Of a stretch of 11,990 bases of DNA, positions 1-11,990 are shown piece after piece (the stretch's first letter is position 1; every line of letters begins with the position of its first letter). Source of the stretch: a virus (Duplodnaviria > Heunggongvirae > Uroviricota > Caudoviricetes); the IMG/VR virus record IMGVR_UViG_2718217868_000007, positions 1 through 11,990 of that record. The stretch is one strand, 5' to 3'. The position numbers and the translations under genes are program-made. The notes under the pieces were generated by a model. The model saw only the letters and a list, made by a program, of their open reading frames with translations. It had not been told where the DNA came from and ran no database searches.

Positions 1-981
1 ATGAACGCAATAATATCGCCCGATTATTACTATGTTCTTACCGTTGCTGGTCAGTCTAATGCCATGGCGTATGGCGAAGGACTGCCATTACCGGACAGGG
101 AAGATGCGCCTCATCCCAGAATTAAACAATTAGCGAGATTTGCGCATACGCATCCCGGAGGCCCGTCATGTCACTTTAACGACATTATTCCACTGACTCA
201 CTGCCCACACGATGTTCAGGATATGCAGGGTTATCACCATCCTCTGGCAACGAATCATCAAACACAGTACGGCACCGTTGGCCAGGCACTGCATATTGCA
301 CGGAAATTACTACCCTTTATTCCTGATAATGCAGGGGTTCTCATCGTTCCATGTTGCCGTGGCGGATCGGCTTTTACCGCGGGCAGCGAAGGGACATATT
401 CAGAACGGCACGGAGCCAGCCATGATGCTTGTCGTTGGGGAACGGATACTCCGCTGTACCAGGATTTAGTCAGCAGAACGCGAGCCGCACTGGCAAAAAA
501 TCCGCAGAACAAATTCCTCGGCGTATGCTGGATGCAAGGCGAATTTGACTTAATGACCAGTGACTACGCGTCACACCCTCAACACTTTAATCATATGGTT
601 GAAGCCTTTCGTAGGGATCTAAAACAATACCATTCTCAGCTTAATAATATTACTGACGCACCGTGGTTTTGCGGCGATACCACCTGGTACTGGAAAGAAA
701 ATTTCCCTCATGCGTATGAAGTTATTTATGGCAATTATCAAAATAATGTTTTAGCCAATATTATTTTCGTCTACTTCCAGCAACAAGGTGAAAGAGGACT
801 GACGAACGCGCCTGATGAAGATCCGGACGATTTAAGCACGGGATATTACGGTTCAGCGTACCGGTCACCGGAGAACTGGACGACGGCACTGCGAAGCAGT
901 CATTTCAACACGGCAGCCCGTCGGGGGATTATTTCTGACAGGTTTGTAGAAGCAATTTTGCAGTTTTGGCGCGAAAAGTGA
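1..981 (+). CDS. nanS: SGNH/DUF303-type sialate O-acetylesterase (NanS-like), 326 aa
   Basis: Full-length ORF starting at base 1. N-terminal GQSN block (VAGQSNAMAYGEG) is typical of SGNH/sialate O-acetylesterase hydrolases. The 326-aa length matches my recollection of chromosomal E. coli NanS (YjhS). Assignment is from memory of the family, not a search. Confidence 0.6.
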   Translation: MNAIISPDYYYVLTVAGQSNAMAYGEGLPLPDREDAPHPRIKQLARFAHTHPGGPSCHFNDIIPLTHCPHDVQDMQGYHHPLATNHQTQYGTVGQALHIARKLLPFIPDNAGVLIVPCCRGGSAFTAGSEGTYSERHGASHDACRWGTDTPLYQDLVSRTRAALAKNPQNKFLGVCWMQGEFDLMTSDYASHPQHFNHMVEAFRRDLKQYHSQLNNITDAPWFCGDTTWYWKENFPHAYEVIYGNYQNNVLANIIFVYFQQQGERGLTNAPDEDPDDLSTGYYGSAYRSPENWTTALRSSHFNTAARRGIISDRFVEAILQFWREK

Positions 982-1135
982 GCGTTCATTAATTTGATTT
1001 ATTCGCATCCATCAACGCTTTTAACTCCTCCGGCGTAAAAGGTGGTTTGCGTCGGTGCAACATCGCATGGCAATTAGGGTACACAGGCAGCAAAAAAACA
1101 AATGAGATCAAAGTAATATATCTTCACTTGCAGGC

Positions 1136-1369
1136 TTGAACAGCCGAAAATTTGCGAGCATGATCGCAATTATTTCACTGCCAGGGATATCAATGGCTTC
1201 CAGTAAATCGCTACAGCAGGCAATTGCCAACATAAAAATCTGGCACAAAGGTGAACAGCGCGCGCCGCATAAGCCATTGTTATTGCTATACGTATTAGCG
1301 GGATACCTGAATGGACATCCACGCCTTTTCGATTATTGTAGTGGAACAGTCTACGAGGATGCAGTTTGA
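1136..1369 (+). CDS. hypothetical 77-aa ORF with TTG start; possibly a gene remnant
   Basis: Six-frame ORF only. Starts at TTG, no clear RBS, overlapped by a minus-strand ORF (1170-1415). Lies in lower-GC DNA between nanS and the putative att remnant. Confidence 0.15.
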   Translation: MNSRKFASMIAIISLPGISMASSKSLQQAIANIKIWHKGEQRAPHKPLLLLYVLAGYLNGHPRLFDYCSGTVYEDAV

Positions 1370-1434
1370 AGTGAGTAAGTAAAGGTTGCTGGAAACGATC
1401 AATGCCGCCATACAATGATATTTGAGGATCACCA

Positions 1435-1620
1435 ATGAGTAATAAAAACTACGAAAGTCACCGCAAAGCAATAGTTAGTAAAGGTATACCACCCACTCTA
1501 TTAAATAGGCTCACCAATTCGGATGTTCAGGTGATCAATACCTTCTTAACACGAGTGAGCAAACTGGAACTATCTCAACAAGAGAAAGACTGGATCATAA
1601 AAATCATCTCTATGGTTTAG
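1435..1620 (+). CDS. hypothetical small protein, 61 aa
   Basis: ATG start with GAGGAT 8 nt upstream. No recognisable motif. AT-rich. Confidence 0.25.
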   Translation: MSNKNYESHRKAIVSKGIPPTLLNRLTNSDVQVINTFLTRVSKLELSQQEKDWIIKIISMV

Positions 1621-1822
1621 AGAATTTCAGCCTTGTAGCCTTTCAAGGGTTTTGTGTGGGTACAAACATTATCGAATCGGGATATAGCCGCAGCTGTAGC
1701 TGTATCCACATCAGTAAGTTGATGTAGGTTGACTTAGGTTGAGCGAAAAATAGCGAAAAGCCTTGTGTGGCGCGGATTTCAGTCATAAAAAAACGTCCGT
1801 TGACGTCTATTGATGTTCCGAT

Positions 1823-1860
1823 GGTGCGAAGGTGCGAAGGTGCGAAGGCCGGACTCAAAC
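1823..1860 (-). repeat. degenerate tRNA 3'-end-like sequence with a triplicated octamer; candidate distal att site of the P4-like prophage
   Basis: Plus strand has GGTGCGAA three times in tandem (1823-1846) followed by GGCCGGACTCAAAC. The reverse complement GTTTGAGTCCGGCCTTCGCACC resembles the T-arm/acceptor 3' end of tRNA-Leu (leuX, ...GGTTCGAGTCCGGCCTTCGGCACCA) as I recall it. It is not an intact tRNA. Confidence 0.4.
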
Positions 1861-2059
1861 ATCAAAATAAGTCAATGATAAAAAACAAATAATAAAACAC
1901 AACAATGAAATATGCCCCCTTTTGTGCCCCCACTGTTTTTCTGACCAATCTATTTTCAGCCCATCAACAAATCGGAAAGTTAAATAATTTTTAATCAGTA
2001 AGTTTGGATCCGTAGTTCGGATCCAAACCAGTGCATCTTTTATCCACATAAAAATTTTT

Positions 2060-2350
2060 TTTTCGGAAGAACTGTTCACACTGTTCACCTTTCTTTTTTC
2101 TCCTTTTATTTCATAGTGATAGGTGGTGAATAATGGGTGAAGGGTGAACATTCGATTCTTCACCTCCGGCATTCTGCCGGTGTGACTTGTGCAGGGGATT
2201 AATTTCCCGTGCTGAAATCACACCGGAAGAAAAAAGTTTTTTTTGATTTGATTGTTCACACTGTTCACCTTTCGTTTTTCTCTTTTAATTTCAGTGTGAT
2301 AACGGGTGAATATACGGTGAAGGGTGAACAGTGGATTGTTCACCTTCGGG
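2060..2350. repeat. crr-like cis replication region: two ~120-bp direct repeats carrying TGTTCACC/GGTGAACA iterons
   Basis: Repeat unit 1 (~2062-2169) and unit 2 (~2222-2350) are near-identical. Each contains TGTTCACA+TGTTCACC (2073-2089; 2253-2269), GGTGAACA (2143-2150; 2323-2330) and an inverted copy (2157-2164 degenerate; 2337-2344). Located immediately downstream of alpha, as crr is in P4. Confidence 0.75.
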
Positions 2351-2361
2351 GGATTCAGGGA

Positions 2362-2387
2362 TAAAAAAAGACCGGCAGATGCCGGTC
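2362..2387 (-). terminator. rho-independent terminator downstream of alpha
   Basis: On the minus strand, hairpin GACCGGC-ATCT-GCCGGTC (2370-2387) followed by a run of 7 T (plus-strand A run 2363-2369). Begins 16 nt after the alpha stop. Confidence 0.6.
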
Positions 2388-2403
2388 AGATGAGTCATGA
2401 TGG

Positions 2404-4737
2404 TCAGGTTGTTGCAGGGTCGTCACATTTTGGCAGCCAGTCGCCGTAGCTTTCCTCTTTCAGCGTCAGGTTGGTCTGTATCCCCTGTTTGGTATGGCGC
2501 TTCTCGTAATTCAGTCCATATTCCTTCAGCATCACCGGCAGCCCCAGCCCGAACATTTTCAGACTGAGTACATTCCGGTAGCCGTTTGCCTCCATGTAGG
2601 CCAGATAGGCGTGATAGAGGTATTTACGGTAATTACGCGGGATGATACTGGCGTTCCCCATATACATGCCGCTGGTCTGCGGCAGGGTTTCCAGATAGCC
2701 GATAAAATCAAACGTCGGGTCGGCATCCCGTTTGATGTTCAGTGCCTCGTCTGAGTTCTGCTGGGACTGAAGCAGTGACCGGGCGAGCATCGGGTCGCTG
2801 AACTTCTGCATCAGGTGACGCACGATGACCGCCAGCTCGCGGGTGATTTTGTCCTTAAGCTGCGGGTCGCGCTCCTGCGGGGCTATCTGTTCCGGGAAGT
2901 GAATAATCACCCGCCGGCGTGACACGCCGCCGCTGCGGTCGGTGAAGCGCATCGGGTTATTGTTCACGGCCAGAATCACCGCCGGGATATGCGTGGAGTA
3001 CGCATCCCGGTATTTCGGGTCCACGGACACCGCATCGCCGCCGGTGATGGCCTTGAGTCCGGCACCGTCGCCGCTCCATTTTTCCTGGTCCGGCAGGCGT
3101 ATCAGTGAGAAGCCAGTTAACGCGGCACGTTCACGCGGGGATTCCAGCGTCTCGATGGTGGCCGACGTGGCGTTATCCTCCCCGGCCAGCAGGGTGGCTA
3201 TTTCGGCCATGATACTTTTGCCGCTGCCGCCGGGACCGGTCACCTCCAGAAAGAGCTGCCAGTCGTAGCGGTTTGCCAGCACCATAAACAGTGCGGCCAG
3301 AATCACGTCGCGTTTTTCCGCACGGCCACCGGCGGCACGGTCAAGCCAGCGCCAGAACGCGGGGGCGTGGGTCTCCAGCGTTTCACCGTCCACCGGCGGG
3401 GTGAAATCCACATCGCACAGGGTGCGCATCCAGTGTGACGGACTGTGCGGGTGGAACGTGCCGTTCTGCGTGTCGAGCACGCCGTTACGAAAGCCAATCA
3501 GGCGGCGGGAGGGGGCTTCCTGCTGCGGAATAATCAGCTTCAGGGTGTCCACCACGGAGGCCACCTTCCCGGAGGAGAACGGCGCGCGCAGACGCTGAAA
3601 CAGCCCGGCCACATCCCGGGCAAAGTCCTGTGGTGGCAGCACCTTCCAGACACCATTTTCATAACGGGACAGAAGCTGGCCGTTGGCATCGACCGCGAGC
3701 GCCTCGCCGTAATGCTCATAGATACGCATGGCCTTTTCGCTGGTACTCATGGCGGAAAACTCCGCTTCGCTCATGGTGTCGAACGGGCTTTCAGCCGGTG
3801 GCCGGATGGCATCGTAAATGGCCTTACGGGTGGCCTCCCCGCCGTACTGCGTGAAGGCATCATTCCAGTCACCGAAGACCGGCGGCAGGGCAACAACGCC
3901 CTCACACGCATCTGCGGCTGCGGCGGCTTTTTTCTGGCCGTCACCGCTGAGGTCACGGTCTGCGGCAAGGACAATCTGACAGGCCGGATGCTTCTGCCGG
4001 GCAAGGCTGGCCAGAGAAAGGAGATTCACGGAAGAAAGCGCCACCATCACCGTTTCACCGGTCAGGTGATGCACGGTAAGTGCGGTCGCGTATCCCTCCG
4101 CTATCCACAGACGTTTTCCGGCCTGATTCTGTCCTTCAAGGGTGTGACAGGTGCCCCTGACCTGTCCGCCTTTCAGGGTGCGCTTACGGCCGTCAGCACT
4201 GATTAACTGAAGGTTAACCAGTTCGCCGCTGTCGTCATACAGTGGCACCACAAGGTCACCGGCACGCCAGCTCACGCCACCGGCTCTGTGTGTGCCGGTC
4301 AGCATCCGGCATTCCCGGCCGGGAAAGCCCTTGCGGGTCAGGTAGGCGTTACCGGTTCCGGGACGGGTTTTCGCCATCAGGGTTTGTGCCAGTGCGGCGG
4401 CGTTCTTCCGGGCAGCGTCTGTTTCAGCACCGGCGGCAGCCGTCACTGCCGGGTCAGCCGGGGGCAGGCTGCCGGTCACGGCAGCCACCTTTGCGGCCGC
4501 ATCGGACGGGGAAACACCAAACACCTTTTCAACCAGTTTCAGGCCGTCACCGGCACCACACTGATTGCAGTACCAGGTGCCGCGCCCCTCCCTGTCATCA
4601 AAACGGAAGCGGTCACTCCCGCCACAGACCGGACAGGGCTGATGACGGTTTTTCAGCACCTGAATCCCCAGCGCCGGGAGAATACGCGGCCAGTGGCCGA
4701 GCGCATGGCTGACGGTGGCGGTTACGTTCATTTTCAT
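2404..4737 (-). CDS. alpha: P4 alpha-type bifunctional primase-helicase / origin-binding replication protein, 777 aa
   Basis: 777 aa, the same length as P4 alpha. N-terminal zinc-binding primase motif CPVCGG...WYCNQCG, Walker A GPGGSGKS in the central NTPase domain, RBS AGGAG 9 nt upstream of the ATG at 4737. Flanked by TGTTCACC iteron clusters, the known alpha binding sites. Confidence 0.92.
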   Translation of the reverse strand: MKMNVTATVSHALGHWPRILPALGIQVLKNRHQPCPVCGGSDRFRFDDREGRGTWYCNQCGAGDGLKLVEKVFGVSPSDAAAKVAAVTGSLPPADPAVTAAAGAETDAARKNAAALAQTLMAKTRPGTGNAYLTRKGFPGRECRMLTGTHRAGGVSWRAGDLVVPLYDDSGELVNLQLISADGRKRTLKGGQVRGTCHTLEGQNQAGKRLWIAEGYATALTVHHLTGETVMVALSSVNLLSLASLARQKHPACQIVLAADRDLSGDGQKKAAAAADACEGVVALPPVFGDWNDAFTQYGGEATRKAIYDAIRPPAESPFDTMSEAEFSAMSTSEKAMRIYEHYGEALAVDANGQLLSRYENGVWKVLPPQDFARDVAGLFQRLRAPFSSGKVASVVDTLKLIIPQQEAPSRRLIGFRNGVLDTQNGTFHPHSPSHWMRTLCDVDFTPPVDGETLETHAPAFWRWLDRAAGGRAEKRDVILAALFMVLANRYDWQLFLEVTGPGGSGKSIMAEIATLLAGEDNATSATIETLESPRERAALTGFSLIRLPDQEKWSGDGAGLKAITGGDAVSVDPKYRDAYSTHIPAVILAVNNNPMRFTDRSGGVSRRRVIIHFPEQIAPQERDPQLKDKITRELAVIVRHLMQKFSDPMLARSLLQSQQNSDEALNIKRDADPTFDFIGYLETLPQTSGMYMGNASIIPRNYRKYLYHAYLAYMEANGYRNVLSLKMFGLGLPVMLKEYGLNYEKRHTKQGIQTNLTLKEESYGDWLPKCDDPATT

Positions 4738-4751
4738 GGTGTTGTTCTCCT

Positions 4752-5072
4752 TCAGTGCAGTACCGGCGCTTTTATGTGACGGGCACAGAGTTCATCCATC
4801 ACAACCAGCCCGAGAAAGGACAGCGACGGCGCGGCCTTCAGGGGGCCGGATTCCATTAAATCTTCCAGCAGGGCACAGGCTATCTGACGCCCTTTTTCCT
4901 CACCGTGCTGGCGCAGATAAAAGCCTTCCAGCTCAGCGGCGATGGCCGCCTCCAGTGACTCAAGGGTGAGATGCGGGTAGCGGTGCTGACGTTCGCACAC
5001 GGTCAGCCAGGCACAGGCGACAGCGCGACGGTAAAGGGCAGCGCGTAAGACGGGCGGTAAGGGTGTTTTCAT
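4752..5072 (-). CDS. hypothetical protein, 106 aa, left-operon gene immediately upstream of alpha
   Basis: RBS GGGAGG 7 nt upstream of the ATG at 5072. Stop lies 14 nt before the alpha start. No motif recognised. Position corresponds to a conserved small ORF in P4-type left operons. Confidence 0.55.
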
Positions 5073-5207
5073 TTGTTTTCCTCCCTGTGACAGATGACTG
5101 CATTCCGTGCCGGTTGCATTAACTGATAAGGCATATCTGCGTCTCCTGAAGACGTGCGTATCCCTGCGCGAATACGCACATTTAATTTTTCGGGTGTCGT
5201 TTTTTAA

Positions 5208-5663
5208 TTACAGATAATTGCGGTAACTGTTATCCGGGGTGATTTCCGGGTCAGGCTCCGTGCGGGAAATTTCCCGCCATTCCCGCGCCACCGGTGCCGC
5301 CCGGCTGACCGGAACAGGGTCCTGCGGGTAAATATCCAGATATTTCTCCCGCCATTTCTGTAATTCCGGGTCTCCGGCCATTTCTTTCAGTACCGCATGC
5401 CGGTTTACGGGGCTGCGTCTGAACAGGTCAGGACGGTCACAGGTAAATTCCCGCAGAAAACGCCCCAGCGGGATGTCTGTGGTGCGCCCGTCGGCGAGGA
5501 TACGCACAAGGATACTGAATTTACGGCGGTACGGATTCCAGACAATGTCCGGGCAGCGGTACGGCATTTCCCACGGAATACCGTCTTCCAGAATGCCGAC
5601 CACGGCCACATCGGGAAAACCGGCAGAACGGTAAATCTCACCGGGCTGGGGAAAATCAAACAT
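5208..5663 (-). CDS. hypothetical protein, 151 aa, left-operon gene
   Basis: ATG at 5663 overlaps the stop of the upstream ORF (ATGTTTGA), indicating translational coupling. Size and position match the ORF known as orf151 in P4. No catalytic motif recognised. Confidence 0.55.
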   Translation of the reverse strand: MFDFPQPGEIYRSAGFPDVAVVGILEDGIPWEMPYRCPDIVWNPYRRKFSILVRILADGRTTDIPLGRFLREFTCDRPDLFRRSPVNRHAVLKEMAGDPELQKWREKYLDIYPQDPVPVSRAAPVAREWREISRTEPDPEITPDNSYRNYL

Positions 5664-5943
5664 GTGTCCTGTCTCCCCGGTCTTTCTGCTGGGCGAGAAA
5701 ATCGCGGCACAGGCCTTTGGCTTTCAGCTCATTCAGCACAAACTCAATATCTTCATTCAGGTAGCTGAAAATATGCGGAATGTAGAGCTGATGCAGGCCG
5801 GAGAGTTCACGGTGAATCAAATCACCCCCAACAAACTGGGATACGGCGCTGGCGCGGTTGAGCTTATGGTAAGCCTCAATGCTGAGGTGTTCACGGGCGT
5901 CATGATGCGCTGAGACGGTCTGAGGGGCTTTTTTATTACGCAC
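5656..5943 (-). CDS. hypothetical small protein, ~95 aa (GTG start preferred; in-frame ATG at 5988 is an alternative)
   Basis: In-frame GTG at 5943 is preceded by GGAGG (5954-5950) with a 6-nt spacer. The hydrophilic C-terminal part looks protein-like. Stop overlaps the start of the 151-aa gene. The six-frame track extends this frame to 6183, but that part overlaps the neighbouring small gene. Confidence 0.4.
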
Positions 5944-6133
5944 GGGACACCTCCACCACCGGCAGACGGGCAGCAAGGGAGAGCACATAGTCACGGACAA
6001 GGGAACGGCGGGCACTGCGTTCATCACCGGCGACGGTGCGAAGCATACAGATACGGGGATGACGGTCTGTGCGACGGACAGCCGCAAACACAAAGACAAA
6101 TTCAGGGTGTGAGGGGGTAAGGGTTGTAGCCAT
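5936..6133 (-). CDS. hypothetical small protein, 65 aa, first translated gene after the leader
   Basis: ATG at 6133 is preceded by GGAGG (6145-6141). This is the C-terminal segment of the 211-aa six-frame ORF; the longer reading would run through a terminator-like hairpin and overlap vis, so the short form is preferred. Confidence 0.35.
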
Positions 6134-6522
6134 AAGGCAACCTCCGATAACAGCGTAAATGACGCTATCGCCGGAGTTCTCACGCTCGATGGCGATAGCC
6201 CAGACGGGGGTGAGAATACCGGCGTTATCGGAAACCGGCCAGCCCGGAGGCTGCCCCGCCTGAGCTACCATTGACTCAGTGGCATAACATGCGATTGCGA
6301 ACAGGATCATACCTGCACGGCAAACCACACGCCACACCATAATCTGGTGCTCTGTGGCGTTGATTGCGACACAAAAAAAGACGCATGGCGCGTCATATGT
6401 CGCCGATAACATACTCGGGTTCTCACGCCCGGCTGCCGATTTTGCGGCAGCGGAAAAACTATATCCGCAAATGCCGGAAAAAGGCAAGCCAGAAAAAGGG
6501 AGTTTTTGCAGAGCGGGCATCA
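6134..6522 (-). promoter_or_regulatory. untranslated leader of the left operon; candidate early promoter and RNA-based immunity region
   Basis: About 390 bp between vis and the first small gene with no convincing ORF. Contains a terminator-like hairpin and a 9-mer present twice (6403-6411; 6144-6152, abutting the SD) whose complement lies between them (6220-6231). P4 encodes its immunity RNA in this leader. Confidence 0.3.
6373..6394 (-). terminator. terminator-like hairpin plus T-run inside the leader
   Basis: Minus strand reads a 5-bp-stem hairpin GACGC-GCCAT-GCGTC (6380-6394) followed by TTTTTTT (plus-strand A run 6373-6379). The stem is short, so strength is uncertain. Confidence 0.4.
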
Positions 6523-6789
6523 TCATGCGTCGTACCCCCGTTTGCGTCCGGCAATGCGTCCGGCCATCCATGCGGTGACTTCAGAGTGCAGCCAGGCCAC
6601 ATTTTTACCGCCAAGACTCACCTGCGGCGGAAATTCCCCCTTACGGATGAGTTCATAGATGGTCGAGCGTGACAGGCCGCACAGGTGCATCACTTCCGGC
6701 AGACGTAAAAAACGCTCCTGCGTGATGTCCGGCAGCGGCATCAGTGGCGTCACAGGGGCGGGAGACGGGGAAGAAAAAACAGCTTGCAT
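6523..6789 (-). CDS. vis: AlpA-family helix-turn-helix regulator (P4 Vis-like), 88 aa
   Basis: Core [46 protein letters not shown] is a typical AlpA-type HTH. 88 aa, as for the P4 ORF originally named orf88. RBS GAGGT 7 nt upstream. It is the first gene downstream of a TGT-N12-ACA dyad. Confidence 0.7.
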
Positions 6790-6891
6790 CGGGCTACCTC
6801 GTTAATGTCCATACAGCACCGGATAAGTCCGTCCGGCTTCGGGTAGCGCTTTATTTTGTGAATATTTTTGGCAGACGCAACAGGGGGGATT

Positions 6892-6909
6892 TGTTCCGGC
6901 AGCCTTACA
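6892..6909 (-). promoter_or_regulatory. TGT-N12-ACA dyad; candidate Ogr/Delta-dependent late promoter (PLL-like) reading leftward into vis
   Basis: TGT (6892-6894), 12 nt, ACA (6907-6909). A TCACAAA-type element (6861-6855) sits ~43 nt downstream on the minus strand, with vis starting ~110 nt from the dyad centre. Consensus is from P2/P4 late promoters. Confidence 0.45.
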
Positions 6910-6934
6910 ATGACTGTGTGTTTTTTGTTCATCT

Positions 6935-6964
6935 CCACTTAAAGTCATTTAAAGCCACTTAAAG
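6935..6964. repeat. three tandem 10-bp repeats (CCACTTAAAG / TCATTTAAAG / CCACTTAAAG)
   Basis: Read directly from the sequence. Lies just upstream of the PLL-like dyad in the vis/ori intergenic region. Confidence 0.6.
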
Positions 6965-7068
6965 CAATTCGTAATTTTTATAGTGAAATACAAATCGTTT
7001 TTTCTTATTCATTCCCGGCGAATTAATAAAAACAAACAGTAATAAACAGCACAAAAAGCCCATCAACG

Positions 7069-7172
7069 GGTGAACAGTGGTGAACAGACGGTGAACAGTC
7101 ATTACTGCGATTGTTCACCCTTTAACTTACTGTATTACTTATCTTTTTTCTTATGGTGAACAGAGGTGAACA
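7069..7172. other. ori-like cluster of six type-I iterons (GGTGAACA / TGTTCACC)
   Basis: GGTGAACA at 7069-7076, 7079-7086, 7090-7097, 7155-7162 and 7165-7172, plus inverted TGTTCACC at 7112-7119, in AT-rich context. Same octamer as in the crr-like repeats ~4.8 kb away. P4 ori and crr are both built from this alpha-binding octamer. Confidence 0.7.
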
Positions 7173-7252
7173 GTAAAATATAAAAAAAATAAACAGTAAG
7201 CCGTTTTTTCCAGCGACCTTTTCCTGGCTTGCCGGTGTGAGGATGAGTCTCC

Positions 7253-7270
7253 TGTGTCAGGGCTGGCACA
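7253..7270 (+). promoter_or_regulatory. TGT-N12-ACA dyad; candidate Delta/Ogr-activated late promoter (Psid-like)
   Basis: TGT (7253-7255), 12 nt, ACA (7268-7270). TCACAAT element at 7304-7310 lies ~45 nt downstream. The sid ATG at 7343 is preceded by RBS GAGGAG (7330-7335). Confidence 0.5.
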
Positions 7271-7342
7271 TCTGCAATGCGTCGTGTTGTTGTCCGGTGT
7301 ACGTCACAATTTTCTCAACCTGAAGTGACGAGGAGCCGGAAA

Positions 7343-8077
7343 ATGTCTGACAACACCATCCCTGAATATCTGCAACCCGCACTGGCACAACTGGAAAAGG
7401 CCAGAGCCGCCCACCTTGAGAACGCCCGACTGATGGATGAAACCGTCACGGCCATTGAACGGGCAGAGCAGGAAAAAAATGCGCAGGCGCAGGCCGACGG
7501 AAACGACGCTGACGACTGGCGCACGGCCTTTCGTGCAGCCGGTGGTGTCCTGAGCGACGAGCTGAAACAGCGCCACATTGAGCGCGTGGCACGCCGGGAG
7601 CTGGTACAGGAATATGACAATCTGGCCGTGGTGCTGAATTTCGAACGTGAACGCCTGAAAGGGGCGTGTGACAGCACGGCCACCGCCTACCGGAAGGCAC
7701 ATCATCACCTTCTGAGTCTGTATGCAGAGCATGAGCTGGAACACGCCCTGAATGAAACCTGTGAGGCGCTTGTCCGGGCAATGCATCTGAGTATCCTGGT
7801 ACAGGAAAATCCGCTCGCCAACACCACCGGCCATCAGGGCTACGTCGCACCGGAAAAGGCTGTCATGCAGCAGGTGAAATCATCGCTGGAACAGAAAATT
7901 AAACAGATGCAAATCAGCCTCACCGGCGAGCCGGTTCTCCGGCTGACCGGACTGTCAGCGGCAACACTCCCGCACATGGATTATGAGGTGGCAGGCACAC
8001 CGGCACAGCGCAAGGTGTGGCAGGACAAAATAGACCAGCAGGGAGCAGAGCTTAAGGCCAGAGGACTGCTGTCATGA
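7343..8077 (+). CDS. sid: Sid-like capsid size determination (external scaffold) protein, 244 aa
   Basis: Start taken at the ATG at 7343 with a strong GAGGAG RBS, giving 244 aa as in P4 Sid; the track ORF begins at an upstream ATG (7277) with no RBS. First gene of the operon sid-delta-psu; its stop overlaps the delta start (ATGA at 8074-8077). Assigned by synteny and size, not by motif. Confidence 0.75.
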   Translation: MSDNTIPEYLQPALAQLEKARAAHLENARLMDETVTAIERAEQEKNAQAQADGNDADDWRTAFRAAGGVLSDELKQRHIERVARRELVQEYDNLAVVLNFERERLKGACDSTATAYRKAHHHLLSLYAEHELEHALNETCEALVRAMHLSILVQENPLANTTGHQGYVAPEKAVMQQVKSSLEQKIKQMQISLTGEPVLRLTGLSAATLPHMDYEVAGTPAQRKVWQDKIDQQGAELKARGLLS

Positions 8078-8574
8078 TTTACTGCCCGTCGTGTGGACAT
8101 GTTGCTCACACCCGTCGCGCACATTTCATGGACGATGGCACCAAGATAATGATTGCACAGTGCCGGAATATTTATTGCTCTGCGACATTTGAAGCGAGTG
8201 AAAGCTTTTTCTCTGACAGTAAAGATTCAGGAATGGAATACATTTCAGGCAAACAGAGATACCGCGATTCACTGACGTCGGCCTCCGGCAGTATGAAACG
8301 CCCGAAAAGAATGCTTGTTACCGGATATTGTTGTCGGAGATGTAAAGGCCTTGCGCTGTCAAGAACATCGCGGCGTCTGTCTCAGGAAGTCACCGAACGT
8401 TTTTATGTGTGCACGGAGCCGGGCTGTGGTCTGGTGTTTAAAACGCTTCAGACCATCAACCGCTTCATTGTCCGCCCGGTCACACCGGACGAACTGGCAG
8501 AACGCCTGCATGAAAAACAGGAACCGCCGCCAGTACGGTTAAAAACACAATCATATTCGCTGCGTCTGGAATGA
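8074..8574 (+). CDS. delta: Delta: tandem Ogr-type zinc-finger late-gene transcription activator, 166 aa
   Basis: Two Ogr-like Cys4 modules in one polypeptide: CPSCGH...AQCRNIYCSATF and CCRRCKG...VCTEPGCGLVF. 166 aa as in P4 delta. N-terminus resembles P2 Ogr. Confidence 0.9.
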   Translation: MIYCPSCGHVAHTRRAHFMDDGTKIMIAQCRNIYCSATFEASESFFSDSKDSGMEYISGKQRYRDSLTSASGSMKRPKRMLVTGYCCRRCKGLALSRTSRRLSQEVTERFYVCTEPGCGLVFKTLQTINRFIVRPVTPDELAERLHEKQEPPPVRLKTQSYSLRLE

Positions 8575-8647
8575 GGGCTGCCGGTTAACACCGGCCGTCG
8601 CCGCACACCGTATTTTTATTCTTCAGCATGATGAGAAAGAGATAACG

Positions 8648-9220
8648 ATGGAAAGCACAGCCTTACAGCAGGCCTTTGACACCTGTCAGAATAACAAAGC
8701 AGCATGGCTGCAACGCAAAAATGAGCTGGCTGCGGCCGAACAGGAATATCTGCGGCTTCTGTCCGGGGAAGGCAGAAACGTCAGTCGCCTGGACGAATTA
8801 CGCAATATTATCGAAGTCAGAAAATGGCAGGTGAATCAGGCTGCCGGTCGTTATATTCGTTCGCATGAAGCCGTTCAGCACATCAGCATCCGCGACCGGC
8901 TGAATGATTTTATGCAGCAGCACGGCACAGCACTGGCGGCCGCACTGGCACCGGAGCTGATGGGCTACAGTGAGCTGACGGCCATTGCCCGAAACTGTGC
9001 CATACAGCGTGCCACAGATGCCCTGCGTGAAGCCCTTCTGTCCTGGCTTGCGAAGAGGGAAAAAATTAATTATTCCGCACAGGATAGCGACATTTTAACG
9101 ACCATCGGATTCAGGCCTGACGCGGCTTCGGTGGATGACAGCCGTGAAAAATTCACTCCTGCGCAGAACATGATTTTTTCGCGTAAAAGTGCGCAACTGG
9201 CATCACATCAGTCTGTGTAA
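8648..9220 (+). CDS. psu: Psu-like polarity suppression / capsid decoration protein, 190 aa
   Basis: Third gene of the sid-delta-psu operon, 190 aa as in P4 Psu, followed by a terminator and the cos region. Assigned by synteny and size. Confidence 0.75.
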   Translation: MESTALQQAFDTCQNNKAAWLQRKNELAAAEQEYLRLLSGEGRNVSRLDELRNIIEVRKWQVNQAAGRYIRSHEAVQHISIRDRLNDFMQQHGTALAAALAPELMGYSELTAIARNCAIQRATDALREALLSWLAKREKINYSAQDSDILTTIGFRPDAASVDDSREKFTPAQNMIFSRKSAQLASHQSV

Positions 9221-9250
9221 AACTCCCCGAAAATCCGCCCGTTTTTACTG

Positions 9251-9295
9251 AAAAAAGCCATGCATCGATAAGGTGCATGGCTTTGCATGCGTTTT
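9251..9295 (+). terminator. rho-independent terminator after psu (A-run, 8-bp stem, T-rich tail; possibly bidirectional)
   Basis: A6 (9251-9256), stem GCCATGCA (9257-9264), 9-nt loop, TGCATGGC (9274-9281), then TTTGCATGCGTTTT (9282-9295). Confidence 0.55.
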
Positions 9296-9384
9296 CCTGC
9301 CTCATTTTCTGCAAACCGCGCCATTCCCGGCGCGGCCTGAGCGTGTCAGTGCAACTGCATTAAAACCGCCCCGCAAAGCGGGCG

Positions 9385-9403
9385 GGCGAGGCGGGGAAAG
9401 CAC
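9385..9403. other. cos-like site: P2/P4-type 19-nt cohesive-end sequence
   Basis: Exact 19-mer GGCGAGGCGGGGAAAGCAC, followed by TGCGCGC, which matches the P2/P4 cohesive end as I recall it. Lies between psu and the cargo locus, as expected for a P4-type element. Confidence 0.65.
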
Positions 9404-9838
9404 TGCGCGCCAGCATCAAAGTGTTTAGATAATTTCGCGGCCTGAGGGTGACGACACGTAGTGCAGATTCGTACGAGTGCCTGTTACTGTCGGATACTAT
9501 TCAAGGGCAGCACAACCTATGAAATGACAATGCTAAAGGAGACGAAGAAGCCGCCTTAAGGCGGCATACATCAGTCACTTGTTGGGTGCCGAAGGCGTAA
9601 CTTTTAAATCTGGTCATATAATGTCTTGCAATTTTTTTACATCGTTTATTCGTTGCTATAGTAACCTGTACCAATCCATATACCAGTTTAAAGCCGTCAG
9701 ATAAATTAGGCTATCATGGAGCAGACGGCACGGCGGTACATGAGTAACGTACCTATTTTCTCAACTTGTTTAAGATGCTGTGCAATACTGACGCATGGGA
9801 GCATGCTTCATCATTTTTTTGTATCCGGATATGGAATG

Positions 9839-9866
9839 TTGACAATCAAAATGTTATCAATATCTT
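9839..9866 (+). promoter_or_regulatory. sigma70-like promoter for the Doc/Fic cargo gene (TTGACA, 16-nt spacer, TATCTT)
   Basis: Perfect -35 TTGACA (9839-9844), 16-nt spacer, -10 TATCTT (9861-9866). Gene RBS AAGGA at 9890-9894 and ATG at 9901. Confidence 0.45.
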
Positions 9867-9900
9867 TCATGTGATCTAAAAATCGTAATAAGGATAGTGA

Positions 9901-10629
9901 ATGCGTATTGGAACTGTAGAAGAAATTCACAATTTTTTAAGTGAATACTATATCAACTCCGAAGACCCTATATCCCCACCAGGAGTGAAAGATGTGGGAT
10001 TACTAGAATCAGCGTGTGCAAGACCGTTTGCTTCCGCTGGTGGGCAGGATGCTTTCGGCGATGTATACCACAAAGCAGCAGCACTATTCCATGGAATTAT
10101 TTCCAACCACTGTTTTTATAACGGAAACAAAAGAACCGCATTATTATCAGCCCTTTATTTTTTGAGTGAACATAACCTTTGGTTAGAAAGATGTAATGAT
10201 GAGGAAATGTTTGAATTTACTCGTCAGGTTGCCGCTCATGAAATATGTGAAAAAAGGGATGACGAGATAGATATTATAGCAGATTGGTTTAACAGAAATA
10301 CTCGGCGAATAGTGAAAGGAGAAAAACCCCTTAACTTTTCGAGCCTACGAGAAAGTTTATCTCAATTTGATTTCCAACTAGAAGATGAAGGGCAATATGC
10401 ATTCATCTATAAAAATGGTGAGATCGTTGAGAAAGTGCTAAAAAAAGGGAAGCAAGGAATGCAAGAATATGATCAAGCATATATTGCTGAGCTTCGAAAG
10501 CGCTTAGATTTAACGCCTGAACATGGGGTTGATAGCGCTCGTTTTTATGGGCAGAAAGGTTTAAATGAGGATTTGAATGAATTTATGAAACTTCGTGTAA
10601 AAGTTTTTGATTGGCTAGCCAAGATCTAA
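9901..10629 (+). CDS. Fic/Doc-family protein (Doc-type HxFxNGNKR motif) with ~110-aa uncharacterised C-terminal extension; satellite cargo gene
   Basis: 242 aa. Residues 70-78 HCFYNGNKR (nt 10108-10134) fit the Doc-type HxFx(D/N)(A/G)NKR active-site motif. No Phd-like partner ORF is evident nearby. Markedly AT-rich relative to the P4 backbone. Has its own promoter, RBS and terminator. Confidence 0.85.
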   Translation: MRIGTVEEIHNFLSEYYINSEDPISPPGVKDVGLLESACARPFASAGGQDAFGDVYHKAAALFHGIISNHCFYNGNKRTALLSALYFLSEHNLWLERCNDEEMFEFTRQVAAHEICEKRDDEIDIIADWFNRNTRRIVKGEKPLNFSSLRESLSQFDFQLEDEGQYAFIYKNGEIVEKVLKKGKQGMQEYDQAYIAELRKRLDLTPEHGVDSARFYGQKGLNEDLNEFMKLRVKVFDWLAKI

Positions 10630-10635
10630 AACTTA

Positions 10636-10660
10636 AGAAGCCTGCGTTTCGCAGGCTTCT
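10636..10660. terminator. hairpin terminator between the convergent Doc/Fic gene and int
   Basis: Perfect inverted repeat AGAAGCCTGCG-TTT-CGCAGGCTTCT with AT-rich flanks on both sides, placed between two convergent stop codons (10629 and 10731). Confidence 0.5.
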
Positions 10661-10730
10661 ATTATTAAAATCAGAAAAGCACCACTTTAAATATAACATT
10701 TAACGAAATTGCGTACTATTAATAATAAAT

Positions 10731-11990
10731 TTACACCTGCCTTTTTGCGAAATCGTATGGTGTAATATAATCAACAGTGTTTTTTTCAAGATAATCGGCC
10801 CACCACTGTACCATCAAACGACGTTCATCCAAATGCTCAGATGTATGGATATAAGCTGCACGTACATTATTACGCTCTGAATGGCTCAACTGTCGTTCTA
10901 TCGCGTCATCACTCCATAACCCTGACTCACCGAGCGCTCCACGCGCCATCGTCCTAAATCCATGCCCGCAAACCTCGGTTTTCGTGTCATACCCCATCGC
11001 ACGCAATGCGCTGTTTACCGTGTTTTCACTCATAACTTTAGTTGCGTCATGATCCCCCGGAAAGAGTAGCTCTTTATCACCACTAATCTGTTTTAACTGG
11101 TCTAACAAAATCATCGCCTGCCAACTAAGAGGAACAATATGCTCCTCTTTCATCTTCATGCCACGATACGAGTAACGAACACCTTTAATTTCTTCTCGTT
11201 TTGCAGGTATACGCCAAAGCGATTTATCGAAGTCGAACTCATCCCAACGTGCGAAACGTAACTCACTGGAACGCACAAAAGTTAGTAATGAAAGTTCGAC
11301 CGCGATCCGTGTCATTACACGGCCACGATATGCCGCAAGACGTGCGAGAAACTCAGGAAACCGGCTAGAGGGTAGAGCTGGATAGTGTCGCGCTTTAGTT
11401 GTCGATAAAGCACCGGCCATATCACTGGCTGGATTTGAGTCGATGTAATCGTTCTGTACGGCATAACGCATAATGGCCGTAACGCGCTGCTGAAGACGCT
11501 GCGCCACGTCATGCTTACCACTGGCATCAACTTTTTTAATCGGGGCTAACAAGTGACTGGTTTTGAGCTGGCGAATGTCGGACAAACCGATATGAGGGAA
11601 GATATAAAGCTCAAGGTAGCGAAGAACGCGCGATCGATGATCTTCACTCCAGCGCTTGTTACTAGCATGCCATTCACGAGCAATGGTTTCGAAAGTATAT
11701 GCCCCCGAATTCTCAGCCTTAGCTTCCTTCTGTTCGGCTTTTGGGTCAATGCCCTGCACTAACAGCTTTTTAGCTTCGTCACGCTTTGCTCTTGCCTGAG
11801 CAAGGGTCACAGTGGGCCAAACACCAAAAGCGAGGCGATCCTCTTTTTTGTCAGAGGGACGTCTGTATTTCATGCGCCAGTATTTAGAACCCTTGGCCGA
11901 AACCTCGAGATACAAACCGCCGCCATCGGCCATTTTGTAGGTTTTGTCTTTTGGCTTTGCGGTCTCGACTTGTCTGGCGTTGAGCTTCAT
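10731..11990 (-). CDS. int: P4-type tyrosine integrase, 419 aa
   Basis: N-terminus MKLNARQVETAKPKDKTYKMADGGGLYLEV is characteristic of P4-family integrases. C-terminal catalytic region has H-x-x-R (GHGFRTMARG) and the tyrosine in RAAYIH. The ATG is the last codon of the window, so the promoter and tRNA/att site are off-window. Confidence 0.93.
   Translation of the reverse strand: MKLNARQVETAKPKDKTYKMADGGGLYLEVSAKGSKYWRMKYRRPSDKKEDRLAFGVWPTVTLAQARAKRDEAKKLLVQGIDPKAEQKEAKAENSGAYTFETIAREWHASNKRWSEDHRSRVLRYLELYIFPHIGLSDIRQLKTSHLLAPIKKVDASGKHDVAQRLQQRVTAIMRYAVQNDYIDSNPASDMAGALSTTKARHYPALPSSRFPEFLARLAAYRGRVMTRIAVELSLLTFVRSSELRFARWDEFDFDKSLWRIPAKREEIKGVRYSYRGMKMKEEHIVPLSWQAMILLDQLKQISGDKELLFPGDHDATKVMSENTVNSALRAMGYDTKTEVCGHGFRTMARGALGESGLWSDDAIERQLSHSERNNVRAAYIHTSEHLDERRLMVQWWADYLEKNTVDYITPYDFAKRQV

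Follow-up and report, generated by a model that had tools for sequence, protein, structure and literature searches.

What marks the end of the prophage in this window (the whole 11,990-nt stretch analysed), and is the unusual repeat found there a product of this prophage or something that it inherited? On the minus strand, positions 1860 to 1823 read GTTT GAGTCCGGCC followed by three copies of TTCGCACC, with A at 1822 and then TCGG; the same letters can also be written as GTTTGAGTCCGGCC plus TTCGCACC three times. The initial annotation had described an octamer triplicated on the minus strand at 1823-1860, and this is exact as worded, both in the sequence and by Tandem Repeats Finder, which reports period 8, 3.8 copies and 95% matches at 1819-1848. 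The double octamer TTCGCACCTTCGCACC occurs in the window at this site only, with no match in 200 shuffles. Together with A1822, the CACC of the last octamer copy forms a tRNA-like end, CACCA.

The window is 100% identical to positions 4359217-4371206 of the E. coli H6 chromosome (NZ_CP010170.1), and the locus that we examined comprised the window plus 4-kb flanks of that chromosome. ARAGORN found no tRNA inside the 11,990-nt window but, in agreement with the annotation of the chromosome, placed a tRNA-Leu(CAA) gene, leuX, at window-equivalent positions 12154-12238 on the minus strand, 164 nt past the start of int, where a tRNA had been expected beyond position 11990. The direct repeat of the core that the initial annotation had advised looking for is also there: the 20-kb locus has exactly two occurrences of GAGTCCGGCCTTCG, one at the site (1856..1843) and one in leuX (12173..12160), both on the minus strand, whereas two matches arose in just 1 of 200 shuffles, even with two mismatches allowed. 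The site therefore carries a direct repeat of the tRNA 3' end, oriented as in the tRNA, and lies across the element from int. GenBank X05947 annotates the 20-bp core of P4 attP as GAGTCCGGCCTTCGGCACCA, and the 14 nt at 1843..1856 are the left part of that core. The three perfect tandem copies of TTCGCACC occupy 1823..1846 (minus strand), the first of them being the core minus one G. Relative to the canonical core, one G is absent (TTCGGCACCA becomes TTCGCACCA, hereafter dG) and two extra TTCGCACC units are present, so that identity to attP and attB extends over 14 of the 20 bases contiguously, after which come the missing G and 16 extra nt.

The DNA to the right of the site is that of a P4-like satellite prophage. 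Megablast against phage P4 (X51522) gave 96.5% identity from 1836 to 11990 except in a cargo region, covering 73% of the window, and the homology ends inside the site, at 1836; on the other side the prophage body (1836..11990) leaves the window and reaches leuX some 160 nt further on. The P4 gene set lies between, with crr at about 2050-2360, roughly 200 bp from the site as had been estimated for the prophage end, the alpha primase-helicase gene at 2404-4737 (a 777-aa ORF with P4-type primase-helicase domains), sid, delta and psu at 7277-9220, and at the other end a P4-family tyrosine integrase (10731..11990, minus strand) with arm-binding, central and catalytic domains, which reads away from leuX. 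Short tandem and dispersed repeats, for example ACTGTTCAC and GGTGAACAGT, occur at 2071-2088, 6935-6965, 7069-7099 and 7155-7173; the first group corresponds to the annotated P4 crr repeats, and we interpret the other three as iterons of the P4 ori. The part of the prophage without P4 homology holds, in the position of gop, beta and cII of phage P4, a Fic/DOC-family toxin gene (9901-10629, plus strand; Pfam PF02661; 'death-on-curing family toxin' in RefSeq), which is probably hotspot cargo.

At the junction itself, the P4 left arm (…ttatcattgacttattttgatgttt) joins GAGTCCGGCCTTCG directly. This prophage side of the site, 1857..1990 on the minus strand, is the P arm of P4 attP, nearly identical to X05947, and both the X05947 alignment and the start of the megablast match at 1836 show it to be contiguous with the core. 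GGGGGCAYA motifs at 1911-1919 and 1923-1931 in the P arm recur beside int in the other arm and are putative arm-type Int binding sites. The initial annotation had read the point differences from the tRNA as decay; GTTT, where the tRNA has GTTC, is present in the attP of phage P4 itself, outside the 20-bp core, and so is not decay. A 105-aa ORF in the same region (1855-2172, minus strand) is partly annotated as 'integrase' in RefSeq (WP_157930187) and has no Pfam match; its TGA stop overlaps the boundary of P4 arm and core. Since the 14-mer is joined to the P4 arm, is repeated in leuX and coincides with the end of P4 homology, we believe that positions 1822-1856 are very probably attR, the int-distal junction, of a P4-type satellite prophage in leuX, with an altered core older than the prophage, and that 1-1822 lie outside it. 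The suggestion of a leuX-like tRNA-Leu 3' end serving as distal att site is thereby borne out.

The flank is outside the prophage, as had been proposed for 1-1820, but it is not simply host DNA. Positions 1640..1822 (minus strand) share about 80% identity with the spacer that separates an intact leuX from a decayed P4-family integrase in strain Res13 and in other strains. On this likeness, 1640-1822 are what is left of the integrase-proximal (P') arm of an older leuX island of the P4 family, which has lost its int in H6; in the relatives Res13, ESY002, AF3, EBJ001 and O157:H7 an int pseudogene survives beside the homologous arm. The older arm contains a terminator-like hairpin (1808..1791) followed by a T run (to 1781). 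Cargo remnants of the older island, fragments of an HNH endonuclease and of a phosphorothioate-dependent restriction endonuclease, occupy 982..1639; at about 1083-1094 the window and strains 2011C-4251 and C7 lack some 0.55 kb, most of the HNH endonuclease gene, relative to several other strains. Beyond the islands lies the chromosomal gene nanS (1..981, plus strand; sialate O-acetylesterase, SASA domain), a full-length ORF of 326 aa at 1-981 that RefSeq annotates as a partial pseudogene at 223-567 only. Along the tRNA-sense (minus) strand the order is thus P4 P arm, core, remains of the older P4-family island and nanS, and the arrangement is a tandem array of leuX, P4, core and old island vestige. 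The definition of a tandem array used by Islander does not extend to the window, where the older member consists of a tDNA fragment and a P' arm, with no int.

Other junctions carry the triplication too, and it was not caused by this integration. A query of the core plus 60 nt of flank gave 1184 matches among 5426 complete E. coli genomes, and allele shares were read from 60 evenly spaced rows of these. The full query aligned in 30 of the 60, one of which is JP538 with six copies, so that about 29 of 60 carry three copies, corresponding to some 570-600 genomes, a count inflated by clonal sampling, for example by many O157:H7 records. Of the remaining rows, about four look to have at least four copies and about four look to have two, while 11 are single-copy dG and seven have intact leuX joined directly to the arm. 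The same allele and flank are therefore found in about half of the roughly 1185 matching E. coli records, beside other elements: the three-copy dG core with the same flank adjoins non-P4 left arms in ML35, 2011C-4251, C7 and JX21CE33. Window positions 140-1822 are colinear with, and 99.3% identical to, 2011C-4251, in which a different island of about 34 kb sits on the same three-copy core. P4 prophages, in turn, occur on two flank haplotypes of the repeat, the second with three or four copies. Because the same allele and flank lie beside unrelated elements, the allele travels with the chromosomal side; judged from these junction sequences, the three-copy allele belongs to that older-island side and predates the prophage, with elements exchanged on it. 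A leuX fused to the three-copy core, the empty site expected after excision, was not seen: the best 30 matches listed for such a query were all intact leuX plus arm (span 93-94 nt), none of them full-length in a single piece.

Copy number itself varies between strains at this same locus, with 1, 2, 3, 4 and 6 copies on homologous flanks: one in ESY002, AF3 and EBJ001, two in SWHEFF_58, four in Z503, LCP30S3_I3 and PEC399, and six in JP538. JNE170426 and Ec40743 carry a two-unit variant in another register, TTCGCCCC ATCGCACC, and the TTCGCACC units and the JNE-type ATCGCACC unit are two independent duplication registers. In these two strains and in ESY002 the junction has further occupants, among them the fosfomycin-resistance gene fosA7.5, beside the JNE-type core, and a retron St85 element whose arm motifs (GGGGCA) are P4-like. 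CC…CC encloses the octamer of the dG allele, and TCG comes again 8 nt downstream (CC TTCGCACC ATCGG). Given this bracketing, the two registers and the series from one to six copies on one combination of element and flank, we infer that replication slippage would have expanded the octamer of the dG allele. The earlier proposal of slippage or decay at the junction was fair as to mechanism, but the process acted on an older displaced tRNA fragment. The allele has become an 8-bp variable repeat in a single flank lineage of E. coli, where it could be of use for typing.

Where P4 Int exchanges strands bears on which side of the junction the altered core belongs to. In USMARC-51688 (NZ_CP104112.1, 3425500-3441500) a P4-like prophage occupies a secondary site in gabD, with junctions catacTTCGGCACCAtta at attL and ggccTTCGaaccttc at attR (in longer form, …gatgccatacTTCGGCACCAttagtc… and …tgtttgagtccggccTTCGaaccttcacg…). 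One partner gives way to the other within (C)TTCG, where the T stem meets the acceptor stem, and the G absent in dG is the base immediately right of the CTTCG segment. P4 Int would accordingly be expected to exchange strands within CTTCG, a position that rests on one secondary-site event and for which a heteroduplex resolved in the overlap would give identical junctions. A crossover lying cleanly to the right of GG would link dG to the side of the element; we rejected it, as the gabD prophage donated GGCACCA to its attL. The right half-site in gabD (TTCG AACCTT) is nearer to the dG core (TTCG CACCAT) than to the GG core, and the gabD prophage carries an 824-aa TIR-domain protein. With exchange within CTTCG, dG and the repeats fall on the chromosomal side. 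An incoming attP would then supply GCACCA and rebuild a working leuX, while the old tRNA 3' end, no longer under selection, would stay at attR and could persist through successive replacements of the element. To this extent the pattern constitutes natural-variation evidence on the strand-exchange position of P4-family integrases.

The missing G forms part of a wider pattern. A query made of the P4 arm and an intact core matched 250 genomes, and in 57 of 60 evenly spaced rows the P4-arm junction was 1 nt shorter than the query (about 95%), consistent with dG; since many of the E. coli rows are clonal (O157:H7), this share is not a tally of independent events. The deletion was verified in sequence at eight fetched loci, the window's own genome included, and deduced from the 1-nt shortfall in the other rows. 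Two of the remaining rows were GG, both followed by an intact second integrase, and the third was the gabD site. In E. coli, the arms to the right of dG are of at least three unrelated kinds. At least 120 stretches with dG came out of a pattern scan, and 84 of those listed had an AT-rich left arm typical of enterobacterial elements. These 84 loci come from dozens of species of Enterobacterales, among others in the genera Erwinia, Serratia, Yersinia, Pectobacterium, Photorhabdus, Proteus and Pantoea and also in S. enterica arizonae. A P4-family integrase starts 154-233 nt right of the core in 18 of the 84 and an integrase fragment lies nearby in three more; the other 63 listed loci gave no integrase match there, and for about 22 of the 84 the sequence to the right is shorter than 1.5 kb. 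Certain right-hand arms are the same in different genera, GTATGTAAATAGACCTCAACTGAGGTCTTTTTTTATGCC, for example, being shared by Escherichia, Yersinia, Rahnella, Buttiauxella and Dryocola, which suggests a widely transferred island family.

In leuX itself the deletion is rare, three of the 5426 genomes being the only exceptions to an intact gene. The dG query covered at least 80% of its length in 5425 of 5426 genomes and matched exactly in three only, 702/18, BS-04 and O111:H21 15A, where the leuX body is fused to dG and the old-island arm; an int pseudogene follows that arm in two of the three. Such a fusion is the state that would be expected after loss of the proximal element. The dG form of leuX ends in CTTCGCACCA, with an acceptor stem unable to pair fully, although RefSeq still annotates a tRNA-Leu. 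A native tRNA variant ending in CTTCGCACCA was considered and rejected, since this end cannot pair with the 5' strand GCCGAAG. Two further matches were set aside: the one in S. arizonae is a longer displaced fragment that starts at the anticodon arm and continues into non-tRNA DNA, with no tRNA called, and the one in Pantoea eucrina is a tRNA body whose 5' strand mismatches the CTTCGCACCA end. Pattern scans of IMG/VR for attP-type junctions, in GG and dG versions, gave no matches, and a BLAST search with P4 attP in E. coli genomes and PLSDB turned up no junction of P arm, core and P' arm.

How, then, might the altered core be explained otherwise? That the site merely resembles a tRNA end by chance, with the true prophage end elsewhere, is scarcely credible: its sole support is the imperfect core, and it is opposed by the exact 14-nt leuX repeat in the same orientation, by the contiguous P4 attP arm and by the stop of P4 homology at the site, beyond which lie sequences common to strains without P4. 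Somewhat less remote, though still very improbable, is the idea that the loss of G and the triplication arose at or after integration of this P4, through slippage at a new junction. The repeat does sit exactly at the boundary of prophage and host, and copy number does change in place, with two, three and six copies all found with one same element type. However, the identical three-copy dG core and flank adjoin at least three non-P4 elements, in about 600 genomes, and the colinear flanks of H6 and 2011C-4251 carry different islands on the same core. An altered core inherited with the chromosomal side remains our preferred account of the triplication.

For dG, simple decay does not explain the repeated loss of the same G, and the options on the table are chromosomal-side inheritance with element turnover, an attP allele acting through heteroduplex, and a hotspot or selection. 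Were dG the elements' own attP allele, a heteroduplex would arise if the G lies within the Int overlap, selection would keep a GG tRNA and a dG attR, and the repeats would be later slippage. We regard this as possible but doubtful. It would account for dG at distal cores in many right-hand contexts, including loci without int there, across dozens of species and at nearly all sampled P4-arm junctions. It also fits one flank haplotype in which all 11 sampled occupied sites (no tRNA annotation) are 1 nt shorter than the seven tRNA-adjacent, empty ones, the difference between dG and GG being verified in sequence in ESY002 and Res13. Yet the sole attP sequence at hand, that of phage P4, is GG, as is the sequence that the gabD prophage gave to its attL; the multi-copy alleles are too long for an overlap of 6-8 bp and show linkage to the chromosomal side; and a 1-nt indel in the overlap normally blocks a lambda-type integrase. 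A comparably low likelihood attaches to selection maintaining the altered core, either because disabled excision locks in a useful island or because the host, with the displaced 3' end broken, depends on the element, without which its leuX would be defective. The position of dG immediately right of the proposed exchange segment points this way, as do the three genomes (of 5426) with leuX fused to dG and the old-island arm, which are in the predicted post-excision state and rare, and the scarcity of GG distal cores, the two among 60 rows both having an intact second int. On the other hand, leuX is dispensable in the laboratory, selection for inactivation alone would not favour one particular deletion, the share of about 95% is inflated by clonal sampling, and no leuX fused to the three-copy core was seen among the best 30 matches listed.

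The assignment of the site to attR fixes the boundary of the prophage, and chromosomal-side inheritance, the reading that we favour for the triplicated core, makes its oddity an inherited one, so that there is nothing exceptional about the H6 prophage. What is worth following up is only the recurrence of dG: nearly all distal leuX cores show the same 1-nt deletion at the edge of the inferred crossover, which may be of modest interest for research on integrative elements. We put forward, as a speculation more likely to fail than to hold, that losing a G beside the Int exchange segment systematically inactivates the displaced 3' end of leuX, as a footprint of integrase cleavage or as a selected allele, and that the host leuX comes to depend on the element. 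As the incoming element would carry the sole intact 3' end, the host tRNA gene would be dependent on it, which raises the idea of elements that are hard to lose since they carry the only working tRNA 3' end. If true, this tRNA-repair ratchet would account for the share of about 95% dG, for its occurrence in dozens of Enterobacterales species and for the rarity of bare dG leuX. In practical terms, tools that find att sites by the identity of attL and attR should expect a 14-nt match with an indel structure.

A literature search did not find the dG 14-mer in either orientation, and the GG core is quoted in one paper; in papers on P4-like satellites, att sites are defined through BLAST similarity, and the dG allele is not discussed. 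No published description of a decayed, slippage-expanded core allele was found. The feature is nevertheless of a known kind, a P4 attR with a displaced tRNA fragment within a tandem array. It resembles P4 attP/attR at leuX (X05947) in its P arm, including GTTT and GGGGGCAYA, in the first 14 bases of the core, in its orientation to leuX and int and in its distance of about 200 bp from crr. It differs in that the core lacks one G and has two extra TTCGCACC units and that an older island arm, not naive chromosome, lies beyond the core.

Resident cryptic P4-family islands beside leuX, of which we take KpLE2/intB in K-12 to be an example, are similar in that an int of the P4 family, or what remains of one, comes after leuX, so that P4 integrates in tandem with them; in contrast to KpLE2/intB, the window keeps only about 180 nt of the resident island arm and fragments of its cargo. 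With VNTR loci that arise by slippage the site shares perfect head-to-tail 8-bp units, a copy number that varies between strains and two registers, whereas, unlike a typical VNTR, it lies inside a recombination site, with no phase-variable gene evident. Finally, in islands at tRNA genes the tRNA regains its 3' end from the element, whose far boundary is marked by the displaced fragment, and arrays form when a new element enters beside a resident one (PMC4383910). The crossover that we place where T stem and acceptor stem meet would match the 'J' subsite of tRNA-integrating islands (PMC4383910). In contrast to the arrays described by Islander, the older member in the window has lost its integrase, and the displaced fragment is now a short repeat of variable number.
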